Below are positions 754 through 39,735 of a stretch of DNA of 64,000 nt, one piece after another. How positions within the stretch are numbered: position 1 is the first letter of the stretch; the number at the start of each line of letters is the position of its first letter. A program made the position numbers and the translations under genes. The notes under the pieces were generated by a model. That model ran no database searches, was not told where the DNA came from, and saw only the letters and a list, made by a program, of their open reading frames with translations. Origin of the DNA: Candidatus Latescibacterota bacterium (lineage in GTDB: Bacteria; Latescibacterota; UBA2968; UBA8231); NCBI GenBank assembly GCA_965204725.1, contig OZ242005.1:2784001-2848000 (forward strand), given 5' to 3'.

Positions 754-754
754 C

Positions 755-3589: not shown

Positions 3590-4339
3590 ATGCTCGTTGA
3601 TAGCCACTGCCATCTCGACCAATTTGCCGATGCCGACGCCGTCCTCGCCGACGCCGCCCAAGCCGGGGTCGCGCAGGTCGTCGCCGTCAGCCAAAGCGTC
3701 AGTTCCATGCGTGCGGTGCGCGCCCTCAAGCAGCGATACCCCCGCCAAGTGCTGGCCGGGCTAGGCTTGCATCCAGCATGGGTCACCCAAGCCACAGCCG
3801 CAGAGCTGGCAGACGGGCTTGCCTATCTGGCCGCGCATCTGGCCGATGCCGATGTCCTCGGGGAGGTCGGCCTCGATTACAAGTGGGCGGTCCATCCAGA
3901 GCAGCAGGCCCAGCAGCAAGACGTCCTCGCGCAGCAGCTCGATCTAGCCGCTCAATGCGGCAAGCCGATCAACCTGCACTCGCGCCGCGCCCAGCGGCAG
4001 ACCTTGGAACGGGCCGTGGAATTTCGCCGCCGCACCCAGCTCAACGCCCAGCTACACTGGTTCACCCAATCCAAAAAACTCGGGCGGATATGCCGTGCGG
4101 AGCGCATTTACGTCTCCGTCGGCCCGTCCGTCCTGTCCGACCCGCAGACCCAAGCCGTGATCGCGGAGCTCGACCGCGAGTTGCTGCTGTTGGAAACGGA
4201 CGCGCCCGTGCCCATCGGCGGGGAAGCGGGCCATCCGGCGCGGGTGGCCGCCGTTGCTACAAAACTAGCCGAACTCATCGGGTTCACCGCGGAGGAGGCC
4301 GCGGCCAATTGGGCACGTTATTTGGGCGAGCGGCCGTGA
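3590..4339 (+). CDS. tatD: TatD-family metal-dependent DNase
   Basis: DSHCHLD, GLHP, GEVGLDY, LHSR, LETDAP. Confidence 0.9.
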   Translation: MLVDSHCHLDQFADADAVLADAAQAGVAQVVAVSQSVSSMRAVRALKQRYPRQVLAGLGLHPAWVTQATAAELADGLAYLAAHLADADVLGEVGLDYKWAVHPEQQAQQQDVLAQQLDLAAQCGKPINLHSRRAQRQTLERAVEFRRRTQLNAQLHWFTQSKKLGRICRAERIYVSVGPSVLSDPQTQAVIAELDRELLLLETDAPVPIGGEAGHPARVAAVATKLAELIGFTAEEAAANWARYLGERP

Positions 4340-4404
4340 AAACGCGGCGGCTCTATCGACATTATGAGACATACTACAAGCGCAATTAAGTAACAGGAGG
4401 AACT

Positions 4405-6147: not shown

Positions 6148-6173
6148 CCAAAAATCCCAAGGAGCGCGACGGA

Positions 6174-7367
6174 ATGAATTCCCCCAAAAAAGAAATCGAC
6201 CTCATCGACTTGCTAACGGCACTCCACGCCGGCCGGTGGCCCATCATCGGCGGCACCTTGGCGGTATGCGTCTTGGCCGGTGGCCTCAGCTTCCTCCTAC
6301 CAAAGGAATACGAGGCCACCGTGCAAATTCTGCCGCCCCGAGAAGAGAAGCAGAGTTTTGGTTTTTCCAGCCTGCTCTCGTCCTTACCCATACCGACCTT
6401 GCGCCTCGGGGAACGGGGTACGCCTGCTGACATTTCGCTCGCGACCATCCGCAGCGAGACGACGCGGCGGCGGATGATCGAGAAATTCGACTTGATGCGG
6501 CACTACGAAGCGCGCACCCTGACCGACGCGCTCGAAACCCTCGCCGACAAAACCACGGCCGACATGACCGAAGAGGGCATGCTGGCGGTCTCAGTACTCG
6601 CCTCAGAGCCGCAGATGGCCGCGGATATGGCCAATTATTACATCGTCCTGCTCGATAGCACCAACAAGCGGTTCTCGCACAAGACCGCCTCGGAGCGCTT
6701 GAATTTCATCCGCGGGCTTTTGCAAGAAGAGGATCAAAAGCTAGAGGACAAAATGAAGCGACTGGAGGAGTTTCAGGCCGAGCACAACGCCATCTCGATC
6801 TCAGACCAAGCCCGCGCCGTGATCCTGACGGCCACCTCCATGCGGACCGCCGTGCTGGAGCTCGAAATTGAGCGCCAACGGCTCATTCAATCGGGGCTGG
6901 GTTTTGATCACGACAAAGTCAAAAAGCTGGAGCGCGAAATTCAACTGCGGAATGTGACCATGGATTTCTTGCGCGACGGCCTGCCGACCAACAACGGCGT
7001 ACTGCAAAACGAGGCGCTGCAACTAGATCTGGAGGAAGATTTTTTTCTGCCGCTCAAGCAGATCCCGGGCGTGGCCCAAGAGTACGCGACCCTCGAAAAG
7101 GATGTGCTCGTGCAGACGTCCCTTTTGCTGGTCCTGCTGCAACAGGAGGCCCAAGCCCTGATTGAGGCCAAGGACGCTACTTCAACCGTGCAAGTGCTCG
7201 ACCCGGCCACGCCGCCCGAAATCAAGGCAAAACCCCAGCGCGTGATGATCGTATTCATCGCGGGCCTACTCAGCCTTTTCGCCTCGATATCTTATGTGCT
7301 GGGGGCGGTGTACCTACAGGATCTGCGGCAGCGCTGGCGTACGCGGCGCGCGGCGATGGCGGTCTGA
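6174..7367 (+). CDS. Polysaccharide chain-length determinant (Wzz/GumC-like)
   Basis: EIDLIDL start, N- and C-terminal TM helices, coiled coil, [14 protein letters not shown]. Confidence 0.85.
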
Positions 7368-7804
7368 TGGCTATTCAAGTGAAGGTGATCAACAAAGGGG
7401 GCCAACCGCTGCCCACCTATGAGACCGCCCACAGCGCGGGCCTCGATTTGCGCGCCGCGCTGTCAGAAGCAGTTGTCTTAGCCCCCGGCGAGCGCGGCCT
7501 CATTCCCACGGGCCTGTTCCTCGAAATCCCCCCGGGCTACGAGGCGCAGGTCCGGCCGCGCAGTGGCTTGGCCCTCAAGCGCGGTCTGACGCTGCTCAAC
7601 GCCCCGGGCACGATCGACGCCGACTACCGAGGCGAAGTGGGCGTCATCGCGATCAACCTTTCGGCCCAAGAGCAGCGCATCGTCCCGGGCGACCGCATTG
7701 CCCAGCTCATTTTCGCGCCGGTGACGCACGGCAAGTGGGTCGAAGTGGAGACGCTCGCCGAAACCGAGCGAGGACGCGGCGGCTTTGGCTCGACAGGAAT
7801 GTAG
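7367..7804 (+). CDS. dut: dUTP diphosphatase
   Basis: [33 protein letters not shown]. Confidence 0.97.
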
Positions 7805-7837
7805 CTTGGGAGTCTATCGCACCGCGTCGTCTAACGC

Positions 7838-8200
7838 TTAGTTATTGCGATTTTGTTTGGGTTTGGGAAACAGATAATTTACTATGATGGCGAGCAATCC
7901 AATGACTTTGACCGTCGTACCTGTGATTAAAGTAATAAGCACTCCATCCGGGAGGGCAAAACCACCAAAGTTAAATCCATGAAAAAAGAGAATTGTGGAT
8001 AGTATCACGAGCCATCCTATAACGAGGTAGTATATCAAATATCCGTATTTCTTGCGGTCTTTTATATTTTGCTCATCGCTTCGATTGATCAATTTTATAC
8101 GTTCAAGTTCAGCCTCGGCAATTTGTTGTTTGATGTTATCCTCGCCTGTGCTCTCTCCTGGAGGGATACGCCTTAATTTGTCTTTTTCCTCATCTTTCAT
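7838..8200 (-). CDS. Small two-TM membrane protein, putative toxin partner of Panacea antitoxin
   Basis: AT-rich. Start overlaps the upstream stop (ATGA). Charged N-terminus followed by two hydrophobic helices. Confidence 0.65.
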   Translation of the reverse strand: MKDEEKDKLRRIPPGESTGEDNIKQQIAEAELERIKLINRSDEQNIKDRKKYGYLIYYLVIGWLVILSTILFFHGFNFGGFALPDGVLITLITGTTVKVIGLLAIIVNYLFPKPKQNRNN

Positions 8201-8697
8201 TGAAGGCGTTCCTTATAGTATTTTTCTATAAGATCATTCTCTATATTGGCGTTTTTTATTGGCACCACTTTTTCGCGTACTTGACTCCAAGGGCTACCTT
8301 CTTCATGCGTCATAGCAGATAGCTCACCGGCACTAAAGCGGCCATACAGTTCCCATATCCGGTTGAGAAAAGCAATCGTGCGCTCATCATCAGGCTTAAT
8401 GTGGGGTATGTGGCTACGCCATTCTCCAAGAGAATAGTAGTAAATCCAATCTAATGCCGGTTTAAGGATCGGCCCTGAACCAAACTCCTTGAACTCATGA
8501 TAGATAGAGGGAAAGACCGGCCCATATTCCCATGCTTCAGCCAACTCATCTTGGACAAGGGGTTCCCCATAAAGGGCCAAATGCCAACCGTGAGCAATAT
8601 AGACCAACTTTTGAATTTTTAACGGCGAAATATCTTCTTTGGCCGAAAGTTCAAGGAAGTAGTTGGCGATTTCCTTTGCTGAGTATGAGTATTCCAT
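8197..8697 (-). CDS. Panacea/SocA-like antitoxin (DUF4065)
   Basis: IANYFL, LKIQKLVYIAHG, EAWEYGPV, LSAMTHEEGSPW. Confidence 0.9.
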   Translation of the reverse strand: MEYSYSAKEIANYFLELSAKEDISPLKIQKLVYIAHGWHLALYGEPLVQDELAEAWEYGPVFPSIYHEFKEFGSGPILKPALDWIYYYSLGEWRSHIPHIKPDDERTIAFLNRIWELYGRFSAGELSAMTHEEGSPWSQVREKVVPIKNANIENDLIEKYYKERLQ

Positions 8698-8782
8698 GTC
8701 CCTTTCTCCGATTCAAAGGATCATATACTGAACAAATGAATACCCTTTAACCGTGTCAATGCGTTTCGTATGTATTTTGATA

Positions 8783-8901
8783 TATAGCAATCCTACATCC
8801 TTCAAGACTGGATTCCCGCTTTCGCGGGAATGACTCCTTTTATGAAAAAAAGACCGTGCCGATCAACATTCCATGCTTTCAAGTCATTTAGGATTGCTAT
8901 A
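8783..8901. mobile_element. 119-bp MITE-like element, copy 1 (GTCATTCCCGCGAAAGCGGGAATCC core)
   Basis: Terminal inverted repeats TATAGCAATCCTA...TAGGATTGCTATA, internal palindrome 8810-8834, inverted near-identical copy at 35003-35121. Confidence 0.85.
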
Positions 8902-8902
8902 T

Positions 8903-8936
8903 AAAAGACCGGCACTCTTTCGGAGGCCGGCCTTTT
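8903..8936. terminator. Probable intrinsic terminator
   Basis: AAAAGACCGGC...GCCGGCCTTTT hairpin with A/T tracts downstream of the moaD-like gene. Confidence 0.6.
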
Positions 8937-8959
8937 GGTTGGAGTATGGATAACGCGGT

Positions 8960-9229
8960 TTAACGCGCGCCCCCGGCCAATGCCGGCAGAAAATGCACCT
9001 CGCTTTGCGGCCCCACCTTCGCCCTAAGCCCGGCCGCGACGACTTCGCCATCCACCGCGACCGCAATCTCAGTCTTGATGCGGTCGCCATCGAGAATCCG
9101 CTCCTTGAACTTAGGGTAGCGGGCGTCAAGGGCGACAATGACCTCGCGCACGGTCGCGCCCTCTACCTCTACTTGCTGCTGACCGTCGGTCAGCTTCTGC
9201 ATCAGCGAAGGAATCCAAACCACAGGCAT
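8960..9229 (-). CDS. MoaD/ThiS-family ubiquitin-like sulfur carrier
   Basis: 89 aa. VEGATVREVI, IAVAVDGE, VHFLPALAGG(AR). Lies directly after the molybdoenzyme genes. Confidence 0.85.
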   Translation of the reverse strand: MPVVWIPSLMQKLTDGQQQVEVEGATVREVIVALDARYPKFKERILDGDRIKTEIAVAVDGEVVAAGLRAKVGPQSEVHFLPALAGGAR

Positions 9230-9233
9230 GGCA

Positions 9234-11486
9234 CTAGCTCCCGGCCAATGCGGCGACAATGCGGTCGGGCTTCATGGGCAATTCCTGCGGACGCACGCCA
9301 ACGGCATCCTCAATGGCAGCGGCTAGGGCGGCGGGCGGCGGGGCGATGTTGGCCTCGCCCACGCCGCGCACGCCATAAGGATGGCCCGGGTTGGGAACCT
9401 CGACGATGATGGTCTCGATCATCGGCAGGTCGAGGCTGGTTGGGATCCGGTAGTCGAGATAGCTGGAGTTATCGAGGTGGCCGTCGGGATTGTAGAAGTA
9501 TTCCTCGTTGAGCGCCCAACCAATGCCTTGTACCGAGCCGCCCTGCATCTGGCCCTCGACGTACGCCGGGTGAATCGCCCGGCCCGCGTCTTGGACGACC
9601 GTAAAGCGCAGGACCTCGACCTTGCCGGTCTCGGGATCCACCCTGACATCGGCGATGTTGGCCGCAAAGGAACCGCCGACGCCCGAGTCTGGATCCACCG
9701 TGGCGCGGCCAATGACCGGGCCGCCGGTCTCTTCGACTCGGCCGGCTAGTTCCTTAAAGGTCATAGCGTTGTCGCCGGAACGGAAGACGCCGTCGGCAAA
9801 CTCGACTTGGCCCACTTCGACCTCCCAGAGCTGGGCCGCGCGCTCGCAGAGCTGATCCCGCACGTCGAGGGCGGCCTTGTACGCGGCCCAGCCGGTGGCG
9901 TACGTCACGCGGCTACCGCCGGTTACGTCCGTGTGGCCAATGGAGTCGGTGTCGCCCACCTGCGGCTTGACGTCTTCGGCCCGCAGGCCCAAGGTCTCGG
10001 CAAACTGCATGGCGACCGATGTGCGCGTACCGCCGATGTCGGTCGAACCCTCGACTAAGCTGACCGTGCCGTCTGCGTTGACGCTGGCCGTGCAGGACGA
10101 CTTGAGCCCGACGTTGAACCAATAGCCGACCGAGATGCCGCGCCCGCCGTTGGGGCCAGCCGGTGCTGGACTCTGGTAGTGGTCCGAGTGGGCGATGGCT
10201 TCCAACACCTCCTTGCAGCCCATCTTGGGATACACCACGCCGTCAATGCGGCGGGTGCCGGTCGTCGCGCTGTTCTTGAGCCGGAGCACTAGCGGCTCCA
10301 TCCCCAATTCGGCGGCCAGCAAATCGACCACGTGCTCAGTGGCAAAGGCCACTTGCGTCGAGCCTGGGGCGCGATACGCGAAACTCCGCGGCTTGTTGAC
10401 CACTACGTCATAGCAGTCAATCCGGCCATCGGGGATGTCGTAGCACGAAAACACGCACATCGCAGCCGCGCCGACTAAGCCGCCGGGATACGCCCCGGAC
10501 TCAAAGGCGATATAGGCGTCGGCGGCCACGATTTTGCCGCTCTTGTCCGCGCCCATCTTGATCTTGATGTACGACCCGGGCGTCGGGCCAGTGCTCTCGA
10601 AGACAGCTGGCCGGGTCATAACTAGTTTGACGGGTTGGCCGCTCGCCTTGGAGAGCAGGGCGGCGACCGGCTCCAAGTAGATCGGGATTTTGCCGCCAAA
10701 GCCGCCGCCGATTTCTTGGGGCACGACCTTGATCTTGGAAATGGGCATGTCCAAGACCGCGCCGACTTGGGCGCGGGCGGTGAACGACCCTTGGGTACTA
10801 GTCCAAATCGTCAGTTGGCCATCGGCGTTCCAGCTCGCCGTGGCGTTGTGCGGCTCGATGTACCCTTGATGCACGGTCGCGGTCTGAAACTCGCGTTCCA
10901 CAATCACGTCGGCCTCGGCAAAGGCCCTGTCTGGATCGCCGAGCCGGTGTTCAAAGTGGGTGGCGAGGTTGCTCTTGCGGCCGGTATCTTCGCCAAACTC
11001 TTGGGTCGTCATGTCGTCGTGGAGTTGCGGCGCGCCCTCCTGCATGGCTTCGCGCACATCGAGCACTGGCTCTAGGACCTCGTACTCGACTTCGATCAGG
11101 TCGAGCGCTTCTTCGGCAAGATGGACGTTGGTGGCCGCGACCGCGGCGACGGGATGCCCGCTGTACAGGGCTTTATCGGTAGCCAGCACGTTGTCGCGCA
11201 GGTACTTGAGCCGGGCTGGGCCTTCGCCGAGATCGACGATCTGGTCGCCGGCATCGGGCAGGTCCGTGCCCGTGAGAACGGCCTTGACCCCAGGGAGGGC
11301 AGCGGCCTTAGAGGTGTCTATGGACTTGATGCGCGCATGGGCGTGGGGCGAGCGCAGGACCTGTCCGTAGAGCAAGCCGGCCAATCGGGTGTCGGCCCCG
11401 TACAGGGCGCGCCCGGTGACCTTGTCGACGCCATCGTGGCGAATGGGACGGGTGCCGATGACTTTGTAGCCGTTGGTAGCAGACAT
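9234..11486 (-). CDS. Xanthine dehydrogenase-family molybdopterin-binding (large) subunit
   Basis: DGVDKVTGRALY, IGGGFGGK, AYRAPG, GQMQGG, RGVGE. Start at MSATNGY after a GAGGAGG RBS. Confidence 0.92.
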   Translation of the reverse strand: MSATNGYKVIGTRPIRHDGVDKVTGRALYGADTRLAGLLYGQVLRSPHAHARIKSIDTSKAAALPGVKAVLTGTDLPDAGDQIVDLGEGPARLKYLRDNVLATDKALYSGHPVAAVAATNVHLAEEALDLIEVEYEVLEPVLDVREAMQEGAPQLHDDMTTQEFGEDTGRKSNLATHFEHRLGDPDRAFAEADVIVEREFQTATVHQGYIEPHNATASWNADGQLTIWTSTQGSFTARAQVGAVLDMPISKIKVVPQEIGGGFGGKIPIYLEPVAALLSKASGQPVKLVMTRPAVFESTGPTPGSYIKIKMGADKSGKIVAADAYIAFESGAYPGGLVGAAAMCVFSCYDIPDGRIDCYDVVVNKPRSFAYRAPGSTQVAFATEHVVDLLAAELGMEPLVLRLKNSATTGTRRIDGVVYPKMGCKEVLEAIAHSDHYQSPAPAGPNGGRGISVGYWFNVGLKSSCTASVNADGTVSLVEGSTDIGGTRTSVAMQFAETLGLRAEDVKPQVGDTDSIGHTDVTGGSRVTYATGWAAYKAALDVRDQLCERAAQLWEVEVGQVEFADGVFRSGDNAMTFKELAGRVEETGGPVIGRATVDPDSGVGGSFAANIADVRVDPETGKVEVLRFTVVQDAGRAIHPAYVEGQMQGGSVQGIGWALNEEYFYNPDGHLDNSSYLDYRIPTSLDLPMIETIIVEVPNPGHPYGVRGVGEANIAPPPAALAAAIEDAVGVRPQELPMKPDRIVAALAGS

Positions 11487-12052: not shown

Positions 12053-12961
12053 TTAGCCGGCTGCTTCCTGCACGGCGTTGGCGACGAACTGGCCGCGGGC
12101 CCGAGCGATAGCACCCGCAAGGGTGCGCTTGACCAAGACCCCGACGAGGTGCGTGCGGAACTCGGCCGGGCCGCGCATATCGGAAATCGGCCGCGCCACG
12201 CTCTGAGCGGCGGCTGCCGCGGCCGCGATGGCCTCGTCTGAGACGGCTTGACCGGCTAGGCTATCGCCGGCCTCGCGTGCGAAAATCGGCGTGGGGCCAA
12301 CCGCCCCGAGCGCAATGCGCACGGCCTTAAACTCCTTGCCGCGATTGGCCAAGACAACGTGCGAGGACACGCCGACGACGGCAATATCCATCTCATTGCG
12401 CGGAATGAAGCGCTGGTAGTGAGAGCCGGTGTTCTTCTTGGCAATCGGCATCTGGAGAGCCACCAAGAGCTCGCCGGGCGCGAGCACATTGCGGCCCGGG
12501 CCGGTGCAAAAGTCCTCTACGGCGACTTGACGTTTGCCATCCGGCCCGGCGATGTGGCACACGGCCGAGTGGGTAATCAGGCTGGGGGTCGCGTCTGCGC
12601 TGGGAGAGGAGTTGCACAAATTGCCGCCAAAAGTGGCGCGGCCTTGGATTTGGATGCCGCCGATAATGGCGGCCGAATCGACGAGCCCAAGGTAACGCTC
12701 GACGATTTCGGGGTCGTTGTAGATGCGCCAGCAGGGCACGGCCGCGCCAATGACCAAACCCCGGCGGGGACCGTAGGAAAGCTCGTTGGCCTCGGGGACG
12801 TTCTTGATGTCGAGGATGCAGTCGGGCTCAAAACGCTTGCCGCGCAACTGGACGATCAAGTCGGTGCCGCCAGCGAGGACGCGGGCGGCCTCGCCTTTTT
12901 CGGCTTTGAGGCCCACAGCCTCGCGCAACGTGCTAGGGGCGCAGTATGCAAAATTTTTCAA
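12053..12961 (-). CDS. Xanthine dehydrogenase-family FAD-binding subunit
   Basis: LAGGTDL, QGRATFGGNLCNSSPSAD, PISDMRG. Confidence 0.93.
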   Translation of the reverse strand: MKNFAYCAPSTLREAVGLKAEKGEAARVLAGGTDLIVQLRGKRFEPDCILDIKNVPEANELSYGPRRGLVIGAAVPCWRIYNDPEIVERYLGLVDSAAIIGGIQIQGRATFGGNLCNSSPSADATPSLITHSAVCHIAGPDGKRQVAVEDFCTGPGRNVLAPGELLVALQMPIAKKNTGSHYQRFIPRNEMDIAVVGVSSHVVLANRGKEFKAVRIALGAVGPTPIFAREAGDSLAGQAVSDEAIAAAAAAAQSVARPISDMRGPAEFRTHLVGVLVKRTLAGAIARARGQFVANAVQEAAG

Positions 12962-13184: not shown

Positions 13185-15014
13185 TTAGGGGAGCTTCGTC
13201 ATCTTCTTGGTTTCTACGCGCCCATCCACTTCGGCCCGATAGAGATACACGCCAGCGGCCACATCCCGACCCACCTCGTCGCGGCCATTCCAAGTAAAGC
13301 GATGAGCACCCGCCGGCAGCGACCCTTGCCATAGCTGCCGCACCCGACGACCCAACGCGTCGTACACGGCCAGCGACGCCTGCGCCGCGTCCGTCGCCAA
13401 ATCAAGGGGGATCACGACAGCCGGGTTGAACGGATTGGGATAGCTGTGGCCCAGCCGATGGTGCGCTGGCCGAGCACCCGACGCCATCGTCACCGCCGTC
13501 GGCGCTCCTGCCCCTGAATTCTCGAGCATGTACACACCGCCCAAGGCTGGGTCCAACACCACCAAGTCTAGGTCGCCGTCGCCATCGACATCGCCGGGCA
13601 GCACACTGACCCCATCGCCCGCCAAGCGATGCGTTTCCGTTTCTTGGGTCGGGTTCAAGCCCCCACCCCACTCGACAAACACTCCAAGACCCGACGCCCG
13701 GTTGCCGCCGACAAACACCCAATCATCTACCTCGTCGGCGTTCAAATCGCGCACCACCACCCGTGAGCGCAGAAATAGCTGTTCGTCGTAGAGAACCTGC
13801 TCGTTATATATCGCCCCCGAGGCGGAAAGCCCTTGCAAGACGAGGCCCATGCCCCATTCAAAGGAGTTGTGTTGGAGGTGCCAGAGCCACTCCCATTGCC
13901 CATCGCGATCAAAATCGCCCCCCGGAATGTCAAAGAGGGGTTCCGTCAAATCCAAGAGGACTTCGAGATCGCCCGGACTTATAGTGAGGACCTCTTCTTG
14001 GAGATCCGGCCCGATAGACCAAACCTCAATTTCGTCTCCCTTCCGTATCACAATCTCGTCTTGGCCATCGCCATCTACATCGTTGGCGAGTAGATACCAA
14101 GGGTACGGGTCTTGGGTATATCCGAGGCGCGCGGATTCAAAGGCCCCATGGCCATCATTGAGGGCCATGACCCAACCCTGAGGAGGCCGCCAGCCAGAGG
14201 GGGGATCCCCCTCATAAGGGGCAAACCGATCCGCGAAAAGGTCTAAGTCGCCATCGCCATCTAAGTCGATCAAGACGCCGCCCCATCGCCCTATACCCGG
14301 TATAATCGGATAAAACACCGGTGGCGCGAAAAGACCGGGGCGATCCAAGTGAAAATACGCTACGGGCGGCGGGGCCAATTCGCCCTGCAAACGCTCTTCA
14401 GGGCCGGTCAACTCGATCCAGTCGATCTCAAGGTGCCCGACCAACTCGTCCACGGACTGGAGCTCTGCCGTTTCGTTCCGAGAAAAGAAAAAAGCCAGCC
14501 GAATATCCCGTAAAAGCCCCTCCCACACGATATCATCTCGGCCGGAGAGGGTAAACTCTACTTCCTGCCACTCGGTGGTAGTGTAAGTGGAATCGTCCAT
14601 GGAGTGGATCGCAAACCGGCTCTTTGACAGCCTTTCTGGGTCTTGCCCTGGGGCCGCGAGATTGTGCTCATTCGTCCAAGCAAGCCGAACGAGCCCTACC
14701 TCAGGGCGATGGTGTGCGGTGCGGAACCGGACTCGCACCCGGTCGAATAGGTGCGAACCGTAGCCTATGGTAGAGGAAATCAAGTCCACATTCGGGGAAA
14801 GATCCCTTTTTCTGGCTACCGAGGGCGAGACATCGACCCTCCACACGCCGTCTTCAACTTCCCCCGGAAACAGATGAAATTCACTGGACCCGCCCCATGC
14901 AGTTGCTGTTTTGGCAGCCCACCCTTGCATCGTTCCGTCGTCGAAATCCCACTTGACTGCCTCGGCGAGGCTGCTCCACAGCACTACGCATACAAAAACG
15001 ACGAACTTCAACAT
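13185..15014 (-). CDS. Secreted FG-GAP/VCBS-repeat protein with C-terminal FlgD-Ig (T9SS-CTD-like) domain
   Basis: Signal peptide, DxDGDGDLDL repeats, tail YPNPFN...WNGRD...AAGVYLY...KKMTKL. Confidence 0.85.
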   Translation of the reverse strand: MLKFVVFVCVVLWSSLAEAVKWDFDDGTMQGWAAKTATAWGGSSEFHLFPGEVEDGVWRVDVSPSVARKRDLSPNVDLISSTIGYGSHLFDRVRVRFRTAHHRPEVGLVRLAWTNEHNLAAPGQDPERLSKSRFAIHSMDDSTYTTTEWQEVEFTLSGRDDIVWEGLLRDIRLAFFFSRNETAELQSVDELVGHLEIDWIELTGPEERLQGELAPPPVAYFHLDRPGLFAPPVFYPIIPGIGRWGGVLIDLDGDGDLDLFADRFAPYEGDPPSGWRPPQGWVMALNDGHGAFESARLGYTQDPYPWYLLANDVDGDGQDEIVIRKGDEIEVWSIGPDLQEEVLTISPGDLEVLLDLTEPLFDIPGGDFDRDGQWEWLWHLQHNSFEWGMGLVLQGLSASGAIYNEQVLYDEQLFLRSRVVVRDLNADEVDDWVFVGGNRASGLGVFVEWGGGLNPTQETETHRLAGDGVSVLPGDVDGDGDLDLVVLDPALGGVYMLENSGAGAPTAVTMASGARPAHHRLGHSYPNPFNPAVVIPLDLATDAAQASLAVYDALGRRVRQLWQGSLPAGAHRFTWNGRDEVGRDVAAGVYLYRAEVDGRVETKKMTKLP

Positions 15015-15038
15015 GACGACACCTCCATAGAAAAATTA

Positions 15039-15133
15039 ACGAGTCCGAGGCCGTGCTCGACGATTTCGGGGTCATTGTAGATGTGCCAGCAGGACACGGC
15101 CACGCCGAGAACCAAACCCCGGAGAGGGTCGTA
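15039..15133 (-). repeat. Degenerate ~95-bp duplicate of an internal segment of the XDH FAD-subunit gene (12681-12775)
   Basis: GCTCGACGATTTCGGGGTCaTTGTAGATGtGCCAGCAGGaCACGGCC...ACCAAACCCCGG matches 12697-12764 with scattered substitutions. Confidence 0.85.
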
Positions 15134-15328
15134 CTAGGTGTGCCGGCGACTACGTTTTGCTTCGTATTGTTCGTACTGCTTGATAAACAGCCTCTTTTCC
15201 TCTTCTGTTGGTTCGGGGTTTCGGGTTTTCTTGGAATAGGACCGCGAACCTAAATCAATGGACGAGTGTTCTATAAAATTCTTCAGCTCATCCATCTCAG
15301 AGATATTGGGATAAATATTCTGTCTCAT
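15134..15328 (-). CDS. Small (64 aa) charged hypothetical protein
   Basis: AGGAGG RBS. Starts 15 nt after the proteasome-like gene, same strand and same AT-rich composition. Confidence 0.65.
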   Translation of the reverse strand: MRQNIYPNISEMDELKNFIEHSSIDLGSRSYSKKTRNPEPTEEEKRLFIKQYEQYEAKRSRRHT

Positions 15329-15343
15329 AAAATTCCTCCTTGG

Positions 15344-16345
15344 TCATCTAGGGGTTATATGGCCTTGGAGCTTATAGGCTTCCTCAGAAATAAATCTGAA
15401 TCCATCCTTCCGGTCAATGATTGCCAGATGTATATCGCCACCGACCGTAGGCATTGAATCTCCAAATTCTTGTACTCTAACCATGAGTTCGACAAGCCAA
15501 TATACGCAATTTATAGCGTTTTGCGTGGAAAAATCTCCGTAATCGGCATTAAATCCCTCGAGTCGCCAAGGCTGTTCGCTGCTAGGGTCATCGGGGTTTT
15601 CTAAGCCAAATATATGGAACTTCTCGAAAAAATTATCTAAATCCGGCAAAACTATATCTCGATTTTCATGCTGCAATTCGTCTATAAATCGATATAGAAG
15701 AAACCTGTACCTTTCTTCTATCAAACGCATATTGAAGGGGTCTGTTCCATGAATAAGACGAGCGATTTCTCTGAATTGTCCACCAAATACTATGCCATAA
15801 TAGCCATCCAATTCAAGTCTGGCATCGCCAGAAGGAAAGTTTACACGGTAAATTTTAGGGGGACTGTCATTGGATTCCCAGCCTCCAATAAGAAGCTCAA
15901 TTTCTGGTTGGAATACATTGTCTGGATATTCTTTTTTATAGTACTCCTGAATTTCATCGACTAACCTTTGAGTAACACAATGAATTGTATAGGGTTCCTC
16001 AAAAGTGCCCTTTTGAGCGAAATCTTGAATGATACTCTTCAAGGTTGTATCACCAATAGATATACTGCCAGAGGTCATAACACCAACATGTTTATTTAGC
16101 TTAAAAAGCTTATCTATGTGTGTCATGTGGCTATAAGGTATATTTTTATTGTGAGAATGAATGTGTTCCCAAAAATTCGATAGAACTGGTTTTCCATTCT
16201 CGTCTGTTATGAGCTCGCCGTCTCTGTCAAAATCAAAATATTGAGCTAACTCATAAGGATCAACCATATTTCGACTGACAGTGCCAAGGCTATCACATCC
16301 CATCACAATTACATCTTTAGTTGAGAAAGTAATAAGTGTTGTCAT
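15344..16345 (-). CDS. Proteasome beta-subunit/Ntn-hydrolase-fold protein
   Basis: N-terminal M-T-T, GCDS (D17-like), DKLF, MTSG, LLIGG, C-terminal PTVGGDIHLAII. AT-rich. Confidence 0.75.
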   Translation of the reverse strand: MTTLITFSTKDVIVMGCDSLGTVSRNMVDPYELAQYFDFDRDGELITDENGKPVLSNFWEHIHSHNKNIPYSHMTHIDKLFKLNKHVGVMTSGSISIGDTTLKSIIQDFAQKGTFEEPYTIHCVTQRLVDEIQEYYKKEYPDNVFQPEIELLIGGWESNDSPPKIYRVNFPSGDARLELDGYYGIVFGGQFREIARLIHGTDPFNMRLIEERYRFLLYRFIDELQHENRDIVLPDLDNFFEKFHIFGLENPDDPSSEQPWRLEGFNADYGDFSTQNAINCVYWLVELMVRVQEFGDSMPTVGGDIHLAIIDRKDGFRFISEEAYKLQGHITPR

Positions 16346-16440
16346 AATACTTCCCTCATTCGTGGCTTTCTTTTAGAACGAAAAAATATAGAATAACCTA
16401 TGTCCAGCAACGAGCTATGTCAACGATCAACGATGGCTCG

Positions 16441-17304
16441 TCAATCGCTCCTTCCTCTCGCTTCTAGGCTCCAATAGATCGTTTCGATCCAGCGCGGCGT
16501 TGGCACGAAAGCCCACTCCCACGACGCCCATTGCGGGTCGAGCCCCTCTGCACGGATTTGGTCGAGGGACATGCCCGCGTCCCGGCGCGTCCGCACACTG
16601 GCCGTAGTCTCCACTAACATGCGATGGTACGTCTTCAGATCGTCGAGGGTGGCGACCGGACCGTGACCGGGGATGATTTTGGTGTCCGCGGGAAGCTGGT
16701 CGACGAGCGTGGCGATGTGTTGCGTCAGGGTCTCGACATCGCCGCCGTACTCTAGATCGACAAAGGGGAAGAGGCCGTTAAAGAAGAGGTCGCCGAGATG
16801 GGCAATCTGGGCGTTGACAAAGAATACGGCGATGTCCCCGTCGGTATGGCCGTGGGGGAAGTGAACGGCGCGGATTTCCTCGCCGTTGAAGAACACGGAC
16901 GCCGACTGCTCAAACGCAATCTCTGGCAAGGCAACCGCCGGCGCAGCCTCAATGAACCGCTTGCCAAATTCACCCCCCGTAGCCAAGCGTTTGCGGACGT
17001 TGGTGTGCGCCAAAATCGTCGCGTGCTGGCCCAAGGCGCGGTTGCCGCCGGTGTGGTCGGCGTGGAAATGCGTGTTGAAGATGTACTGGGGCTGGCCAGC
17101 AAAACGGGCTAGCGCGGCGCGTAGCGCATCGGCCTGCGACGCCAATTTGGCATCAACCAACAGAATGCCATCGCTGCCGACGCAAACCCCGACATTGCCG
17201 CCACCACCCTGCAACACATACACCGCGTCGCTGAGTTGGGAAAGCGACAGTTCGGCGGCCGCTGGGCTAGCCGCCCACAGCACCGCGATTAGTAACAAGC
17301 GCAT
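16441..17304 (-). CDS. Secreted MBL-fold metallo-hydrolase (cyclase-like)
   Basis: NTHFHADHTGGN, GHTDGD, PGHG and a signal peptide. Confidence 0.9.
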   Translation of the reverse strand: MRLLLIAVLWAASPAAAELSLSQLSDAVYVLQGGGGNVGVCVGSDGILLVDAKLASQADALRAALARFAGQPQYIFNTHFHADHTGGNRALGQHATILAHTNVRKRLATGGEFGKRFIEAAPAVALPEIAFEQSASVFFNGEEIRAVHFPHGHTDGDIAVFFVNAQIAHLGDLFFNGLFPFVDLEYGGDVETLTQHIATLVDQLPADTKIIPGHGPVATLDDLKTYHRMLVETTASVRTRRDAGMSLDQIRAEGLDPQWASWEWAFVPTPRWIETIYWSLEARGRSD

Positions 17305-17344
17305 GTTCCTTTTCCTCCGTGCTTAGGTTCAGTGGGGTGGGAGG

Positions 17345-17412
17345 ACTGATGTTACTTACTACACGACACCAGCCGCTTCCTTCCAAGGAGCGAGGGCATC
17401 TTGCCCTCGATC
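17345..17412. repeat. Short intergenic palindrome / REP-like remnant
   Basis: CGAGGGCATCTTGCCCTCG hairpin at 17391-17409, preceded by ACTGATGTTACTTACT. Single copy in window. Confidence 0.4.
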
Positions 17413-17416
17413 CCGA

Positions 17417-19042
17417 TTACCGATCCCTCTTCCCCTCTTCGATCATTAAATACCGATTGACTGGCAAGTCGGTAAAAATCTCGCGGTGCTGGTCGGGCCA
17501 GCGCACTTCGAGCGTATCGACTCGCTCGACGCGCCCTAGCCCAAAGTGAAGGCGGCGGTCCTCGCTGGAGAGGAAACTGCTGCCGCAGACGAGGTCGCGG
17601 ATCTGCGTCCGCTTGCCAGCGACGAGGCGCGCTCTAGCGCCAATGCCATCGCGGTTGCCGCGCGTACCAACCAAGCGCAGGCCCAGCCAATTCCGCCGGT
17701 TGCCCACATCGTTTCGCAGCAACGAGGGCCGGTCGTCGAGATTGGCAACGAAAACATCCAAGTCGCCATCGTCGTCAAAGTCGAGCAAGTTGGTGCCGCG
17801 GCTGACGCGGGGCACCTTGGGGCCGAGCGCGACGGGAGTGAACGTTCCATCGCCACCATTGGCAAAAAGGTGATTGGGCTGGGCATAAGCACTGCCGCTG
17901 CCGGAGCGGTCAATCTGCGGATACACGTGACCATTGGCTACCAACAAATCGAGGTCGCCATCGTGGTCAAAGTCAAAGAACCCCGCGCCAAAGCTCACGT
18001 GCGCCCACCCGACACGCCCCAAGGCCGCTTCGCCGCTGACATCCGCAAAGGTGCCGTCGCCCTCGTTGCGATAGAGGGTATTGTACTCGTCTTCAAAATG
18101 CGTGGCGAGCAAGTCGGGCCGGCCGTCGTTGTCGTAGTCGCCCCAAGCCACCCCCATGCTCGCTTGGATTTGTCCGCTGCGGCCGTAGGCCAAGCGGGCT
18201 GGGAGGGAGCGGTCGGTAAAGCGACCATCGCCGCGATTGCGATAAAAAAAGTTCGGGCTAGAGTCGTTGGCTACGAACAGGTCGGGCCAGCCATCGGCGT
18301 CGGCGTCCGCAAACAGGACGCCCAAGCCGTAGCCGGGGGAGGGATGGTTGAGGCGCGCCCAAGCGGTGATGTCGGCAAACTCGTCGCCGTCGTTGCGGTA
18401 AAACACGTCCGCCGCCCCGGTCAACCCCCTCGGGCCGACGAAGACATCGACTCCCTTCCATTGCGCGCCCAAGCGCTCGACCGCAGCAGAATCAAATATG
18501 GCATAGATCGCCACGTACAGGTCGAGGTCGCCGTCGCGGTCGTAGTCGGCCCAAGCCGCGCCCGTGCTCCAATGAGACGTAGCCACACCAGCCGCTGCGC
18601 CCACATCGGCGAAGGCCACGCCGTCGTTGCGAAAGAGCACATTCTCCCGCAGTTGGGTCGCGTACAGGTCTGGGTCCCCGTCGTTGTCAAAGTCCGCACT
18701 CGTCGCACCCATGCCCCAGCCGCGGCCGGCGGTCCCGAGTGCCTCGCCCACATCGACAAAGCCGGTCGGACCATCGTTGCGGAAAAGCGCGTGCCCGCCG
18801 CTTGGGCCATTAACCCAATAGAGGTCTTGGTCGCCATCGAGATCAAAGTCGAGCGCGGCGGTGCCGCCGCCTTTGGCCTCGGGGATATAGCCCTTTTCTA
18901 AACTGCCGCTCGCGTGGACGCGGGTCAGGCCGAGTTCGGCGGCCACATCGACGAAGGGCGAGCGCGGCTCGGCTGCGACGCCGCACGTCCATAGCATGAC
19001 CGCGCAGAGGGCGCGGGCCGTGTTGGAGAGAAACGTGGGCAA
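17417..19042 (-). CDS. CRTAC1/ASPIC-UnbV family FG-GAP repeat protein
   Basis: Repeated DFDxDGDxDL, NRDGIGAR, SFLSSEDRRLHFGLG, VRWP. Confidence 0.92.
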   Translation of the reverse strand: MPTFLSNTARALCAVMLWTCGVAAEPRSPFVDVAAELGLTRVHASGSLEKGYIPEAKGGGTAALDFDLDGDQDLYWVNGPSGGHALFRNDGPTGFVDVGEALGTAGRGWGMGATSADFDNDGDPDLYATQLRENVLFRNDGVAFADVGAAAGVATSHWSTGAAWADYDRDGDLDLYVAIYAIFDSAAVERLGAQWKGVDVFVGPRGLTGAADVFYRNDGDEFADITAWARLNHPSPGYGLGVLFADADADGWPDLFVANDSSPNFFYRNRGDGRFTDRSLPARLAYGRSGQIQASMGVAWGDYDNDGRPDLLATHFEDEYNTLYRNEGDGTFADVSGEAALGRVGWAHVSFGAGFFDFDHDGDLDLLVANGHVYPQIDRSGSGSAYAQPNHLFANGGDGTFTPVALGPKVPRVSRGTNLLDFDDDGDLDVFVANLDDRPSLLRNDVGNRRNWLGLRLVGTRGNRDGIGARARLVAGKRTQIRDLVCGSSFLSSEDRRLHFGLGRVERVDTLEVRWPDQHREIFTDLPVNRYLMIEEGKRDR

Positions 19043-27210: not shown

Positions 27211-27774
27211 ATGACCACCCAGCCGCAGGGCCGCGTCTTCACGGTCGGCGAGTACTACCGCATGGCCGAGGTCAACATTCTTACCGAGGAGGACCGCGTT
27301 GAGCTTATCGCCGGGCAGATCGTCGCCATGAGCCCCATTGGTAGCCGGCACGCCGCTTGTGTCGATCGGCTCAACGGCTTACTGCATCGCCAGCCGGGGC
27401 CAGCCTTCATCGTGCGAGTGCAAAGCCCCATCGCCCTCGACGCGTACTCCGAACCGGAGCCTGACCTAGTGCTGCTCGAGCCCCGCGCCGACTTTTACGC
27501 GGCGGCTCATCCGTCGGCCGGCGATGTGCTGCTAGCCATTGAAGTCGCCGACACCTCGGCGAGCTACGACCGCGAGGTCAAGGTGCCGCTCTACGCGCAA
27601 GCCGGGCTTCCCGAAGTGTGGCTGATCGATCTGCAACAAGGCCGCATTGAGGTGTTCGCCCGTCCCCAAGGCAACGCCTACCAACAGCGCGTCGAAGTCG
27701 CCGCCGACGATGCCTTCACCTCGCCGACCGTCGCTGGCCTAACACTGACGGCCGCCGACCTGTTGGGGAGCTAG
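27211..27774 (+). CDS. Uma2-family putative endonuclease (copy 1)
   Basis: RVELIAGQI, EPEPDL, IEVAD, KVPLYAQAG, EVWLIDL. Confidence 0.92.
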   Translation: MTTQPQGRVFTVGEYYRMAEVNILTEEDRVELIAGQIVAMSPIGSRHAACVDRLNGLLHRQPGPAFIVRVQSPIALDAYSEPEPDLVLLEPRADFYAAAHPSAGDVLLAIEVADTSASYDREVKVPLYAQAGLPEVWLIDLQQGRIEVFARPQGNAYQQRVEVAADDAFTSPTVAGLTLTAADLLGS

Positions 27775-27776
27775 CT

Positions 27777-38075: not shown

Positions 38076-38124
38076 CTGCAGGATCGGGTGTCGTTCTTGT
38101 GGCTGTTCAAAAAGGAGAATGACG

Positions 38125-39723: not shown

Positions 39724-39735
39724 AGGAGCGTCCTA

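Follow-up and report, generated by a model that had tools for sequence, protein, structure and literature searches.

A two-gene cassette was found in the window, herein the whole analyzed stretch of 64,000 nucleotides from a Latescibacterota genome (Table 1). Judged from its sequence and structural model, the large protein is a Thr enzyme of the proteasome β fold with an intact catalytic set and uncharacterised function; comparison across loci supports the small ORF as its conserved, co-expressed partner. We tentatively read the large protein as a Thr1 enzyme of narrow specificity, a peptidase or transpeptidase, and the small protein as its dedicated ligand, together forming a mobile, conflict-type module. 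New here are the conserved coupled partner ORF, its motif, its replacement by a GIY-YIG protein, a mobile block linked to Bil genes, and homologues in Pseudomonas prophages. The partner gene provides a first handle on the function of a catalogued enzyme family of unknown function, and a conserved coupled partner with a short invariant motif makes a cheap, concrete experiment possible for one of the catalogued groups of proteasome homologues, probably a PMI group ("Proteasome homolog with Multiple Insertions"; PMC8665760).

Table 1. Positions of the cassette genes and associated signals in the window
Feature	Position	Strand	Basis
Gene for the proteasome-β-fold N-terminal-nucleophile enzyme, probably of PMI type, 333 aa, starting MTTLITF	15344..16345	-	ORF, PF00227, AF2, Foldseek, conservation
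Gene for the 64-aa basic partner	15134..15328	-	ORF, partner alignment, dN/dS, AF2
AAGGAGG Shine-Dalgarno sequence of the small gene	15335..15341	-	direct sequence reading
AT-rich leader (GC 0.40) separating the large gene from the MBL-fold hydrolase gene upstream of it	16346..16440	-	sequence, composition

The proteasome-type enzyme

The proteasome-β (Ntn) fold that the earlier note had proposed from the letters alone was recovered by three approaches. PF00227 was the only Pfam family matched by the 333-aa protein at E <= 10 (36.7 bits against a cut-off of 22.4, with the match covering residues 74–169 only). The AF2 model (pLDDT 85.0, pTM 0.76) gave at least 500 Foldseek matches in the PDB at E <= 0.001, with 20S β subunits first; the best match was 8rvo_Y (E = 3.6e-9), and the Thermoplasma β subunits 6bdf_1 and 1pma_1 were found within the top 20. 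Structural alignments to 20S β subunits showed 9–15 % identity and TM scores of 0.6–0.7 on the target. Model, Foldseek and Pfam thereby agree on the α-β-β-α sandwich fold of proteasome subunits.

In proteasomes, the catalytic residues are numbered Thr1, Asp17, Lys33 and Gly47, the last being the oxyanion Gly (PMC8665760). Their equivalents in the 333-aa protein are T2, D18, K79 (within IDKLF) and G93. The Thr directly after Met, the Asp at the D17 position, the DKLF lysine after an insertion of about 45 aa and the C-terminal TVGG, all pointed out previously, were confirmed: K79 falls 45 residues later than Lys33 would, and the distance from K79 to G93 is 14, equal to that from Lys33 to Gly47. 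No propeptide precedes the Thr. T2, D18, K79 and P299-T-V-G-G303 are invariant or nearly so among 30 aligned relatives, 28 of which start with M-T-[T/S], the other two being N-terminally short. D18, K79 and G93 do not vary in a set of 65 relatives with 20–52 % identity, in which conservation of M1, T2 and T300–G303 is at least 90 %. The regions corresponding to Ser129/Asp166/Ser169 contain FGGQ (187–190) and PTVGG (299–303); proteasome β subunits carry G-S-G at the position of FGGQ. The intact catalytic set within this fold agrees with the former description of the protein as an uncharacterised Thr enzyme.

The protein is about 130 residues longer than a 20S β subunit because of two large insertions. 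In the AF2 model, the S3/S4 insertion (approximately residues 29–73) contains helices 30–36 and 58–65 and lies between strands 21–28 and 80–84, and the H3/H4 insertion spans approximately residues 227–273. Helices H1 and H2 are retained in the model (102–112 and 121–139). The enzyme family comprises 327 representative clusters at E <= 0.001. A set of 86 homologues is of about 330 aa, and none of these 86 exceeds 357 aa; no longer, fused forms were found, which is weak evidence. Other collections were little informative. The family profile gave only weak β-4 matches (E ~0.09) among PDB sequences, and residues 1–29 alone, too short a query, gave 0 matches there. Only unnamed clusters were matched in the ESM Atlas, one of them with PF00227 on 10 % of its members; nothing was found in PHROGs below E = 0.03, and NCBIfam yielded only archaeal α-subunit models far below threshold.

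HslV, Anbu, BPH and connectase had been named as the stand-alone classes, a list that is outdated: the catalogue of Fuchs, Alva and Lupas (2021) adds 22 subfamilies of proteasome homologues, for which they reported limited clues to function and no informative gene context (PMC8665760). Insertions at S3/S4 and H3/H4 together are reported only for PMI-5 and PMI-6 (PMC8665760), and since these are the insertions modelled here, the 333-aa protein probably belongs to this catalogued, unstudied type. These two groups share with the 333-aa protein the proteasome-like core, the Thr1/Asp17/Lys33/Gly47 set, the missing propeptide and the insertions at both sites. The two-helix S3/S4 insertion described for PMI-6 is likewise seen in the model, and the PMI-6 taxon row of Table 1 in PMC8665760 resembles the spread of the present family. 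This placement, and with it the likeness to the published PMI representatives WP_103790100.1 and WP_179179973.1, follows the published description.

HslV, Anbu and BPH (PDB 1G3K, 5LOX and 5OVS, as cited in PMC8665760) are likewise stand-alone bacterial proteasome-β homologues with N-terminal Thr. None of them was found among PDB sequence matches at E <= 10 with either the protein or the family profile, and all three identities were rejected; additionally, HslV and BPH are compact subunits lacking insertions (PMC8665760), in contrast to the two large ones here, and no hslU-type gene lies nearby. Connectase, the DUF2121 protein of methanogens (PDB 6ZVZ), is described in PMC7980362 as a monomer with a lid that binds its substrate by β-strand addition and cleaves before Pro (between Asp and Pro in KDPGA). 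It resembles the 333-aa protein in being related to proteasome β subunits, in having Thr directly after Met and in the two-helix S3/S4 insertion seen in the model; furthermore, it acts on a short linear motif of a specific partner at a bond preceding Pro, and the small partner here has a conserved Tyr-Pro. However, connectase has no H1/H2 (PMC8665760), both of which the model of the 333-aa protein keeps, and it occurs in methanogens with MtrA as partner, whereas the present family is bacterial and mobile and is partnered by a dedicated small ORF. DUF2121 was not among the Pfam matches, searching PDB sequences at E <= 10 brought up no connectase chain, and identity with connectase was rejected on the presence of H1/H2 and the missing DUF2121 match.

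The 20S β subunits (PF00227, MEROPS T1) provide the best fold matches and the same catalytic residues and spacing, but no α-subunit gene, propeptide or unfoldase gene was found here. Greedy ORF calling with a 90-aa minimum gave 56 window ORFs, of which the large gene alone matched PF00227, and no HslU-type or proteasomal AAA+ ATPase, PafA or Dop was found. A canonical 20S particle, with an α partner and a ring complex served by an unfoldase, is thus not encoded among these ORFs. The former statement that α-subunit and HslU genes are absent nearby is correct for the same set. Pup itself falls below 90 aa; the one ORF of that size scanned, the 64-aa ORF, matched no Pup family.

The partner gene and its motif

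The small gene had been described as a charged ORF with its own strong ribosome-binding site, which was confirmed: its AAGGAGG lies 6 nt ahead of the ATG, inside the 15-nt spacer that follows the TGA of the large gene. The protein (pI 9.05, 13 K+R, 11 D+E) has an extended N-terminus with I-Y-P-N at residues 5–8, helices at 9–21 and 42–63, and a basic tail (AF2 pLDDT 84.6, pTM 0.40). No fold match in the PDB (0 matches), no HTH or other DNA-binding family in Pfam or NCBIfam, and no recognisable toxic domain in Pfam, NCBIfam, PADLOC or PHROGs was found for these hydrophilic small proteins.

Conservation of the gene pair, proposed earlier as a check, was surveyed in 45 genomic loci of enzyme homologues. 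Many of these come from MAGs, where misassembly may account for apparent frameshifts. A small ORF follows the enzyme gene in 35 of the 45 loci, 27 of them with the Tyr-motif type and 8 with another small ORF in the same position. The remaining loci have a GIY-YIG ORF (4 loci), a broken small ORF (2 loci) or none (4 loci); the GIY-YIG protein replaces the small partner in one clade. The genes are often translationally coupled: 12 related loci have an ATGA overlap, with the small-gene start placed 4 nt ahead of the stop of the large gene, and GGAGG lies inside the 3' end of the latter. No other large neighbour gene is conserved across the 45 loci.

The small gene has dN/dS of 0.07–0.37 in frame against 0.5–9 in the shifted frames, both of which gave higher values, and is under purifying selection. 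A chance ORF was rejected because of this ratio together with conservation and translational coupling. Relatives of the small protein form 47 clusters of 47–71 aa, predicted independently elsewhere; approximately 22 of these match the L024 partner in their length of 55 aa. The partner evolves faster than the enzyme in most of the divergent pairs (dN 0.34 vs. 0.13 for L018/L024 and 0.146 vs. 0.075 for L020/L022), whereas among the closest relatives it is the more conserved of the two (dN 0.04–0.06 vs. 0.10–0.11). Several non-homologous partner types occur with one conserved enzyme.

In the alignment of 28 partners, Tyr6 is the single invariant Tyr. The consensus around it is [L/I]-Y-[P]-[T/N], located in the AF2 model in the extended segment ahead of helix 1. 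The pattern [LIVM]Y[PSTI][TNK] was found in 19 of 34 non-redundant partner ORFs, whereas 2000 shuffles gave 1.2 on average and never more than 6. The strict motif is missing from the other 15: Y-[I/M/H]-[T/K] replaces it in the partner type of L007, L015, L023 and L044, and no Tyr is present in the L040 partner or in the L043 frame used. LY is present in the four Bacteroidota-type partners, and motif-like strings occur elsewhere in unalignable partner types (PYPR in L008, LYPR in L010). The GIY-YIG protein of L014 starts with M-K-G-P-Y-P-I-S, in which PYPI resembles the motif; this resemblance was seen at only one of three GIY-YIG N-termini. Since P-[T/N]-x-x-E immediately ahead of a helix has the look of an N-capping box as well, part of the conservation may be structural rather than a matter of recognition. 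Complex prediction for the enzyme and the small protein scored 0.01, which is below the mark, has no controls and is informative neither way.

Copies with only one intact gene were also found. The enzyme is intact beside a broken partner in L016 and stands without partner in L019 and L034; in L030, the enzyme has lost its N-terminal nucleophile region and the small ORF is intact. After the phage copies of the enzyme, no convincing partner was found. Such orphan and half-decayed copies of either gene lean against strict toxin–antitoxin dependence.

Mobility and interpretation of the pair

The cassette is, as noted before, far more AT-rich than its host: its GC is 0.396, while the remainder of the window has 0.612 (rounded, 40 % for the gene pair and 61 % for the genome), and GC3 is 0.34 in the large gene against 0.75 and 0.78 in two flanking genes. 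In 44 of the 45 loci, the gene has a lower GC than its flanks, the mean difference being 0.11. The enzyme family is spread patchily across phyla, being found in Deltaproteobacteria-type lineages, Bacteroidota and other bacteria. In L010, L013, L039 and L045, the cassette has transposases of the IS1 family or IS4/5 type next to it or within it. Distant homologues were found in 16 temperate phages of Pseudomonas between integrase and tail-fibre genes, i.e., in accessory positions of prophages; the plasmid collection gave no match. These comparisons support horizontal mobility of the family, with clear transfer between phyla. The pair of the window was also found in three other Latescibacterota genomes, partly in synteny, with 81–85 % DNA identity (flanks 80–90 %), and looks vertically inherited within that clade. 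The proposed horizontal acquisition therefore fits the family but not a recent event in this lineage.

L018 (Pseudomonadota) and L024 (Gemmatimonadota) share one common block with 77.6 % DNA identity and unrelated flanks. It runs from 3 nt before the enzyme ATG to just past bilA and includes, in 4.6 kb, the enzyme gene, the small ORF and then, convergently, bilD-C-B-A; pair and bil operon are not co-transcribed. The block was also found in L026 and L039, giving four loci in three phyla, and the enzymes of the Bil-linked loci form one clade (support 100/99). The other 41 of the 45 loci, among them the window and its sister locus L042, showed no Bil genes within 3.5 kb. The word "proteasome" occurs 0 times in either Bil preprint, and term searches there found no Ntn-type or other accessory neighbour.

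The suggestion of a defence or toxin–antitoxin-like module is only suggestive on present evidence. PADLOC-DB 2.0 contains 0 families matching either protein at E <= 10, and the flanks in the window are ordinary genes for an MBL hydrolase, FG-GAP proteins and a CoxM-like subunit. Enrichment of defence genes, also proposed as a check, was not distinguishable from background: defence models matched 45 of 290 neighbour ORFs and 6 of 55 ORFs of the window (Fisher p = 0.53), the latter being a single-window background that itself holds defence-like islets. Because this control showed no enrichment, the generic "defence island" argument was rejected.

From the fold, catalytic residues, partner conservation and coupling, motif and mobility, we infer how the pair may bind, cleave, assemble and act. 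Methionine aminopeptidase would strip Met1 and expose the Thr, which is a permissive second residue for this removal, and Asp18, Lys79 and Gly93 would complete a proteasome-type active site. The two-helix S3/S4 insertion of the model sits where connectase has its substrate-selecting lid, with the second insertion between H3 and H4; because of these insertions, a specific, probably non-barrel enzyme appears more likely than a bulk protease. The co-translated small protein would be a ligand dedicated to the enzyme and would dock in the active-site cleft through the [L/I]-Tyr-[Pro]-[Thr/Asn] motif of its extended N-terminus. Most likely, hydrolysis or connectase-like transpeptidation would then process it at Tyr-Pro or close by, which would release or alter its helical, basic remainder. 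The pair would act as an autonomous, horizontally mobile conflict-type module, physically welded to the BilABCD operon in one clade. Canonical proteasome sites cleave a Tyr-Pro bond poorly, which fits a non-cleaved pseudo-substrate as well as processing. The more specific proposal of a connectase-like, sequence-specific Thr1 protease/ligase that acts on its own small-protein substrate at Tyr-Pro, with Bil coupling in one clade, is rather doubtful. A specific ligase of the connectase kind would offer a second natural scaffold for protein-ligation tools, and a functional Bil linkage would bear on the reach of ubiquitin-proteasome logic into bacterial immunity; a Tyr-Pro substrate together with Bil coupling would mean a bacterial ubiquitin-like conjugation system tied to a proteasome homologue. 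If neither the ligase nor the Bil link holds, there is still a cleaner annotation, that of a PMI-type homologue with an unannotated small partner gene.

A non-cleaved pseudo-substrate is the core of a toxin–antitoxin or abortive-infection reading, in which the enzyme is harmful and the small protein is a labile inhibitor whose loss, for example during infection, frees the protease; the Tyr of the inhibitor would lie in the S1 pocket, and Pro at P1' would block hydrolysis. We consider this unlikely, though with an appreciable chance of being correct. As in type II-like systems, two adjacent genes are co-expressed and one is small; the unit is autonomous, translationally coupled, AT-rich and mobile, its partner is partly extended, and a Tyr-Pro bond would resist cleavage. 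Faster evolution of the partner in most of the divergent pairs and the several non-homologous partner types beside one conserved enzyme point the same way, and the Panacea-domain antitoxin-like islet of the window indicates that such modules lodge in this genome. However, there are intact enzyme genes whose partner is broken (L016), missing (L019, L034) or not convincing (phage copies), a state that an unneutralised toxin should not allow; the partner is more conserved than the enzyme among the closest relatives, and the GIY-YIG nuclease-domain protein taking its place in one clade is unlike an inhibitor. That swap, with the enzyme constant, would suit a reversed polarity, in which the downstream small basic or GIY-YIG protein is the effector or toxin and the enzyme neutralises or licenses it by cleavage. 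The motif-like start of the L014 GIY-YIG protein fits as well, but it is the only such case in three, in L030 the small ORF has stayed intact although the enzyme next to it lacks its nucleophile region, and the hydrophilic small proteins carry no recognisable toxic domain; we give this reading little credence. A protease-repressor switch of the CapP/CapH or ImmA/ImmR kind, with a DNA-binding small protein whose signal-triggered cleavage de-represses nearby genes, is slightly less credible again. It draws on the basic C-terminal helix, on the adjoining defence operon in four loci and on the capH/capP regulators carried by type II Bil operons (bioRxiv 10.1101/2023.09.26.559546), but no HTH or other DNA-binding family was detected, the pair runs convergently to bil instead of diverging from the bil promoter, and for most copies, which stand by themselves, no regulatory target is evident.

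An accessory arm of the Bil pathway, with the enzyme processing or removing Ubl-tagged proteins and the window copy as an orphan, is very unlikely. The single enzyme–small ORF–bilDCBA block in L018, L024, L026 and L039, the homology that begins 3 nt before the enzyme ATG, the single clade of these enzymes (100/99) and the 55-aa length that about 22 of 47 small-protein clusters share with the L024 partner all speak for it. Against this, 41 of 45 loci have no Bil genes within 3.5 kb, the operons are convergent and not co-transcribed, the only β-grasp gene of the window is a ThiS-family one about 6 kb away, and neighbouring defence systems often co-travel without working together. Finally, a housekeeping, self-compartmentalising protease like HslV or BPH, with the small protein as an assembly, gating or adaptor factor, seems improbable. 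In its favour, the closest folds are 20S β subunits, the retained H1/H2 mediate ring contacts in proteasomes (PMC8665760), and the ordinary metabolic and secreted-protein genes around the window copy and its stable inheritance in the Latescibacterota clade would be natural for it. On the other side, the modelled H3/H4 insertion lies at the ring-ring contact site and the S3/S4 insertion over the active site (PMC8665760), no AAA+ unfoldase was found among window ORFs of at least 90 aa, the distribution is patchy with clear transfer between phyla, GC is far under that of the host in 44 of 45 loci, and copies are disrupted by IS elements. The specific, mobile enzyme with a dedicated ligand remains our tentative preference.

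Local sequence around the cassette

No convincing promoter or terminator was found by scanning the minus strand, and the consensus scan reported no minus-strand promoter in the leader. TTGACA at 16418–16423 of the leader is a possible -35 box, a weak reading by eye; such boxes also occur upstream of the large gene in several related loci, and no common element was found across loci within 100 nt upstream of it. Around the islet, only short repeats at chance level were found as terminal repeats. The window contains no detected tRNA, and Rfam gave no match over 14000–17500. The only β-grasp gene of the window is a ThiS-family ORF beside a molybdenum-enzyme gene, approximately 6 kb from the cassette, and a second AT-rich islet of the window encodes a Panacea-domain antitoxin-like protein.

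Fold and class of the enzyme

The protein encoded by the larger gene of the pair, herein referred to as the enzyme, matches PF00227 over residues 74–169 only (Pfam; 36.7 bits against a gathering score of 22.4). The AF2 model, built from 30 relatives, is confident (pLDDT 85.0, pTM 0.76), and the best full-length matches among PDB structures were 20S beta subunits, including Thermoplasma beta (E from 3.6e-9; TM 0.6–0.7, target-normalised). Among viral matches, the best was a phage protein bearing the name 'Proteasome beta type-2 subunit'. G16, D18, S19, K79, G93, F187-G188, R196, G200, D202, and P299-T-V-G-G303 are invariant among the 30 relatives, and T2 is nearly so. Among 65 relatives, with identity down to 20%, D18, K79, and G93 are invariant, and M1, T2, and T300–G303 are conserved at 90% or above. 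By alignment, T2, D18, K79, and G93 are the predicted equivalents of Thr1, Asp17, Lys33, and Gly47 once Met1 is lost (numbering as in the available text of PMC8665760). An insertion of 45 residues shifts the Lys33 equivalent, but the distance from Lys to Gly remains 14. Judged from model and conservation, the enzyme is a proteasome-beta-fold protein with a predicted intact active site at these four positions. Database searches indicate that its family is not small, with 327 representative clusters at E <= 0.001. All 86 homologues of near-equal length (~330 aa) are unnamed or 'hypothetical', except one JGI record named '5'-3' exonuclease'.

The earlier note compared the protein with HslV, Anbu, BPH, and connectase, a list that predates or overlooks 22 further subfamilies added to the proteasome homologues by Fuchs, Alva, and Lupas in 2021 (PMC8665760). 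Among these are the PMI groups (Proteasome homolog with Multiple Insertions). As described there, an insertion between S3 and S4, the site of the two-helix lid of connectase, occurs elsewhere in two groups alone, PMI-6 (as two helices) and PMI-5 (unstructured), and an insertion between H3 and H4 is carried by PMI-2 to PMI-6. In the AF2 model of the enzyme, strands 3–8, 12–18, and 21–28 are followed by helices 30–36 and 58–65 and by strand 66–74, ahead of the Lys79 strand; about 47 extra residues are located between H3 (203–226) and H4 (274–293). Since the model has both the two-helix S3/S4 insertion and the H3/H4 insertion, the enzyme appears PMI-6-like or PMI-5-like by the published description of insertions. 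The enzyme shares a lid-like S3/S4 insertion with connectase but differs in retaining H1/H2 (helices 102–112 and 121–139). Connectase was ruled out by this retention and by the lack of any DUF2121 or connectase match even at E <= 10; HslV, Anbu, and BPH were ruled out by the same searches. The proposal of an uncharacterised enzyme holds, and that of a protein outside all classes probably does not: its insertions fit a catalogued type, and it is most likely a member of an uncharacterised PMI-type class already described in the part of the literature available.

Coordinates of the features discussed (window positions unless a locus is named)
Feature	Locus	Position	Strand	Description
Large gene	window	15344-16345	-	333-aa protein, starts MTTLITF
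Small gene	window	15134-15328	-	64-aa protein, pI 9.05
AT-rich leader	window	16346-16440		95 nt, upstream of large gene
GC-rich fragment	window	15055-15133		79 bp, directly past small-gene stop; duplicate piece of CoxM-like gene
Intact CoxM-like gene	window	12053-12961		
FG-GAP/FlgD-Ig gene	window	13185-15014		609-aa secreted protein
Panacea-like islet	window	7838-8697	-	two genes
Uma2-family genes	window	27211-28337	+	two tandem genes
Fic/DOC gene	window	30265-31179	-	
Ankyrin and methylase-HNH genes	window	38065-41262	+	
Phage homologue	L046 (OQ594955.1)	287-1309		
Phage homologue	L047 (OR188720.1)	about 4001-5023		
Bil block	L018	5998-10594		
Bil block	L024	5998-10597		
Bil block	L026	about 5987-10651		
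Bil block	L039	5991-10777		
GIY-YIG-type ORF	L009	7049-7375		
GIY-YIG-type ORF	L011	2520-2849		
GIY-YIG-type ORF	L014	7038-7361		
GIY-YIG-type ORF	L037	downstream of 6124		
ORF listed with GIY-YIG type	L019	4092-4415		locus tallied as without downstream partner

The small partner gene

The two genes are separated by 15 nt containing AAGGAGG. The GC content of the cassette is 0.396 vs. 0.612 for the remainder of the window, and GC3 of the large gene is 0.34 vs. 0.75 and 0.78 in two flanking genes, in agreement with the AT-richness noticed earlier; the other observations made from the sequence were likewise borne out in every particular. The islet has a sharp 3' edge because the GC-rich CoxM-like fragment begins right after the small-gene stop. 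This fragment reads CWHIYNDPEIVEH, as does the intact CoxM-like gene, and matches an internal stretch of the CoxM-like FAD-subunit gene in the homologous loci L001–L003 at 82–88% identity. In these three loci, the CoxM-like gene directly follows the cassette; in the window, the FG-GAP/FlgD-Ig gene intervenes, and therefore a local rearrangement must have taken place and left a fragment behind.

Enzyme homologues were analyzed in 45 genomic loci, which represent ten or more phyla, with three frames translated downstream of each. In 27 loci the downstream small ORF is of the type present in the window (alignment A2), and in eight a different small ORF of 54–72 aa is located at the same place (four Bacteroidota-type, two Verrucomicrobia-type, and L008 and L043). 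Four loci, forming one clade of Zixibacteria, a Methanobacteriota archaeon, and Cloacimonadota, instead have a GIY-YIG-like ORF of 107–109 aa with CPxxGC at its end. Only the L011 ORF exceeds the Pfam GIY-YIG cut-off, and narrowly (23.2 vs. 22.6 bits); L014 has no Pfam match. The small ORF is broken in L016 and L021. Four loci have no downstream partner: L019, L034, and two with IS disruption, L039 and L045. Beside the enzyme, the 45 loci have no other large gene in conserved position, and no enzyme-partner fusion was seen among the homologues examined. The small gene of 12 loci begins 4 nt ahead of the large-gene stop, with GGAGG inside the large gene, as is characteristic of translationally coupled genes. 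Between close relatives, partner dN/dS is 0.07–0.37 in frame vs. 0.5–0.6 and 1.2–9 in shifted frames, from small counts of 9–21 substitutions per pair. Gene callers elsewhere have independently predicted the partner (47 clusters, 47–71 aa, no names, no Pfam domains). Comparative sequence evidence thus indicates that the enzyme has a genuine and conserved partner in the small ORF.

The one invariant column of A2 is Tyr6 of the window's small protein, in the context [basic]-x-[L/I]-Y-[P/S/T/I]-[T/N/K]-x-x-E. In 34 partner ORFs of all types, after removal of five near-duplicates, [LIVM]Y[PSTI][TNK] was found in 19 (mean 1.2, maximum 6 in 2000 shuffles of the same sequences) and [LIVMP]YP in 18 vs. 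1.4 in shuffles. Similar words occur elsewhere in partners that cannot be aligned to A2: PYPR in L008, LYPR late in L010, and LY in all four Bacteroidota-type ORFs; one GIY-YIG protein has PYPI at its N-terminus. AF2 predicts residues 1–8 as extended, helices at 9–21 and 42–63, and no compact fold (pLDDT 84.6, pTM 0.40). P-[T/N]-x-x-E immediately ahead of a helix also has the appearance of a helix N-cap, so recognition need not be the role, or the only role, of the motif.

Possible action of the pair

Of the relatives with an S3/S4 lid, only connectase has been characterised. This monomer binds to a short linear motif in a single partner protein via beta-strand addition; the bond attacked is the one preceding proline (KD|PGA), and the N-terminal piece is retained as a Thr1 amide (available passages of PMC7980362). 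By analogy, the small protein may be a ligand directed to the active site of the enzyme, with processing most likely at or beside Tyr-Pro. This is the favoured reading and is advanced tentatively: a lid-like insertion and an intact Thr1 site coincide with a dedicated partner whose one invariant feature is an aromatic-Pro motif in an extended segment. In the main rival reading, Tyr-Pro would be present precisely because it is uncleaved, and the small protein would act as a pseudo-substrate that inhibits a harmful protease, in the manner of a toxin-antitoxin pair. This is rather unlikely. Intact enzymes are found with a broken partner (L016) or with none (L019, L034), and in L030 the partner is intact although the enzyme beside it has lost its N-terminal part. 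From this decay pattern, observed in MAGs where some frameshifts may be assembly errors, neither gene seems lethal by itself, and the balance leans towards a substrate. The main value of the pair is that the function of one PMI group becomes directly testable.

Inheritance, phage relatives, and defence context

In 44 of the 45 loci, the homologue has a lower GC content than its flanks (difference 0.11 on average, up to 0.28). In a protein tree of 38 intact rows, the window's enzyme falls in a clade of seven sequences, all from Latescibacterota, that has full support, and other well-supported clades mix phyla. Cassette DNA of the window and L001–L003 is 81–85% identical, the flanks are 80–90% identical but rearranged, and dS between the window's pair and those of L001–L003 is 0.4–0.6; the cassette thus looks inherited within this clade. 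Horizontal acquisition, proposed earlier, holds for the family but is not recent in this lineage, where cassette and flanks appear to have diverged together. In the window and L001–L003, the pair stays at ~39% GC (GC3 0.34) in ~61% GC genomes, without amelioration despite this apparent divergence. In L010 and L013, IS1-family transposases occur at the flanks of the pair; the enzyme gene is split by an IS4/5-type element in L039 and truncated by another in L045.

Full-length homologues were found in 16 Pseudomonas aeruginosa temperate phages (tblastn, 23% identity, E = 6e-19; pairwise BLASTP, 24%, E = 9e-27). The phage protein (340 aa) has the same catalytic motifs and insertions, retaining the M-T start, GCDSL, the lysine, FGGQ, and TVGG; in one record the annotated start (4163) is too far downstream. 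In LESphi2 the gene, annotated 'proteasome subunit beta', is alone at the genome end, past the tail-fibre genes and on the opposite strand, and in LPPA33 it is located between integrase and tail-fibre genes; positions of this kind are typical of accessory genes. The phage homologue is not followed by a convincing small partner, and the literature searched gave no record of its function.

Loci L018 (Paracoccaceae) and L024 (Longimicrobiales) share one block with 77.6% identity, extending from 3 nt before the enzyme ATG through the small ORF and convergent bilD-bilC-bilB-bilA genes of the BilABCD ubiquitin-like anti-phage operon. The same block was found in L026 (Dehalococcoidia; 68–71%) and in the IS-disrupted L039 (78–84%), and thus spans Pseudomonadota, Gemmatimonadota, and Chloroflexota with 68–84% DNA identity and unrelated flanks; L042 has only the two-gene cassette in common with it. 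This co-transfer, in four of the 45 loci, the window not among them, is the strongest hint of a conflict-related role. The word 'proteasome' does not occur in either Bil preprint, and the passages found in these versions contain no proteasome homologue. The partner ORF, its motif, partner swapping, and Bil co-transfer were not found in the accessible text of the CC-licensed PMC papers and bioRxiv preprints searched.

PADLOC models, none of which matched the enzyme or the small protein, matched 45 of 290 neighbour ORFs within ~3.5 kb vs. 6 of 55 other window ORFs at E <= 1e-5 (Fisher p = 0.53), the control being a single window that itself carries defence-like islets. Neighbour matches include MzaA/B, HEC-01, HEC-09, type IIG restriction-modification enzymes, MADS parts, PDC-S01, and PDC-S18. 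A second AT-rich two-gene islet in the window (GC 0.39 and 0.44 in a 0.61 host) encodes a 166-aa SocA/Panacea antitoxin-domain protein (PF13274, E = 5.7e-20), then a 120-aa ORF without family, and looks like a Panacea-type toxin-antitoxin pair. Another region of lower GC (0.49 then 0.60) holds a gene for a 552-aa protein whose C-terminal part consists of ankyrin repeats and, after it, one for a fusion of a DNA N6/N4-methylase with an HNH endonuclease; both have PADLOC matches (PDC-M72A, MTase_II). The Fic/DOC-domain protein (GC 0.52) matches the SoFic and PDC-S04 defence models, and both Uma2-family putative endonucleases (187 and 186 aa) match PDC-S03.
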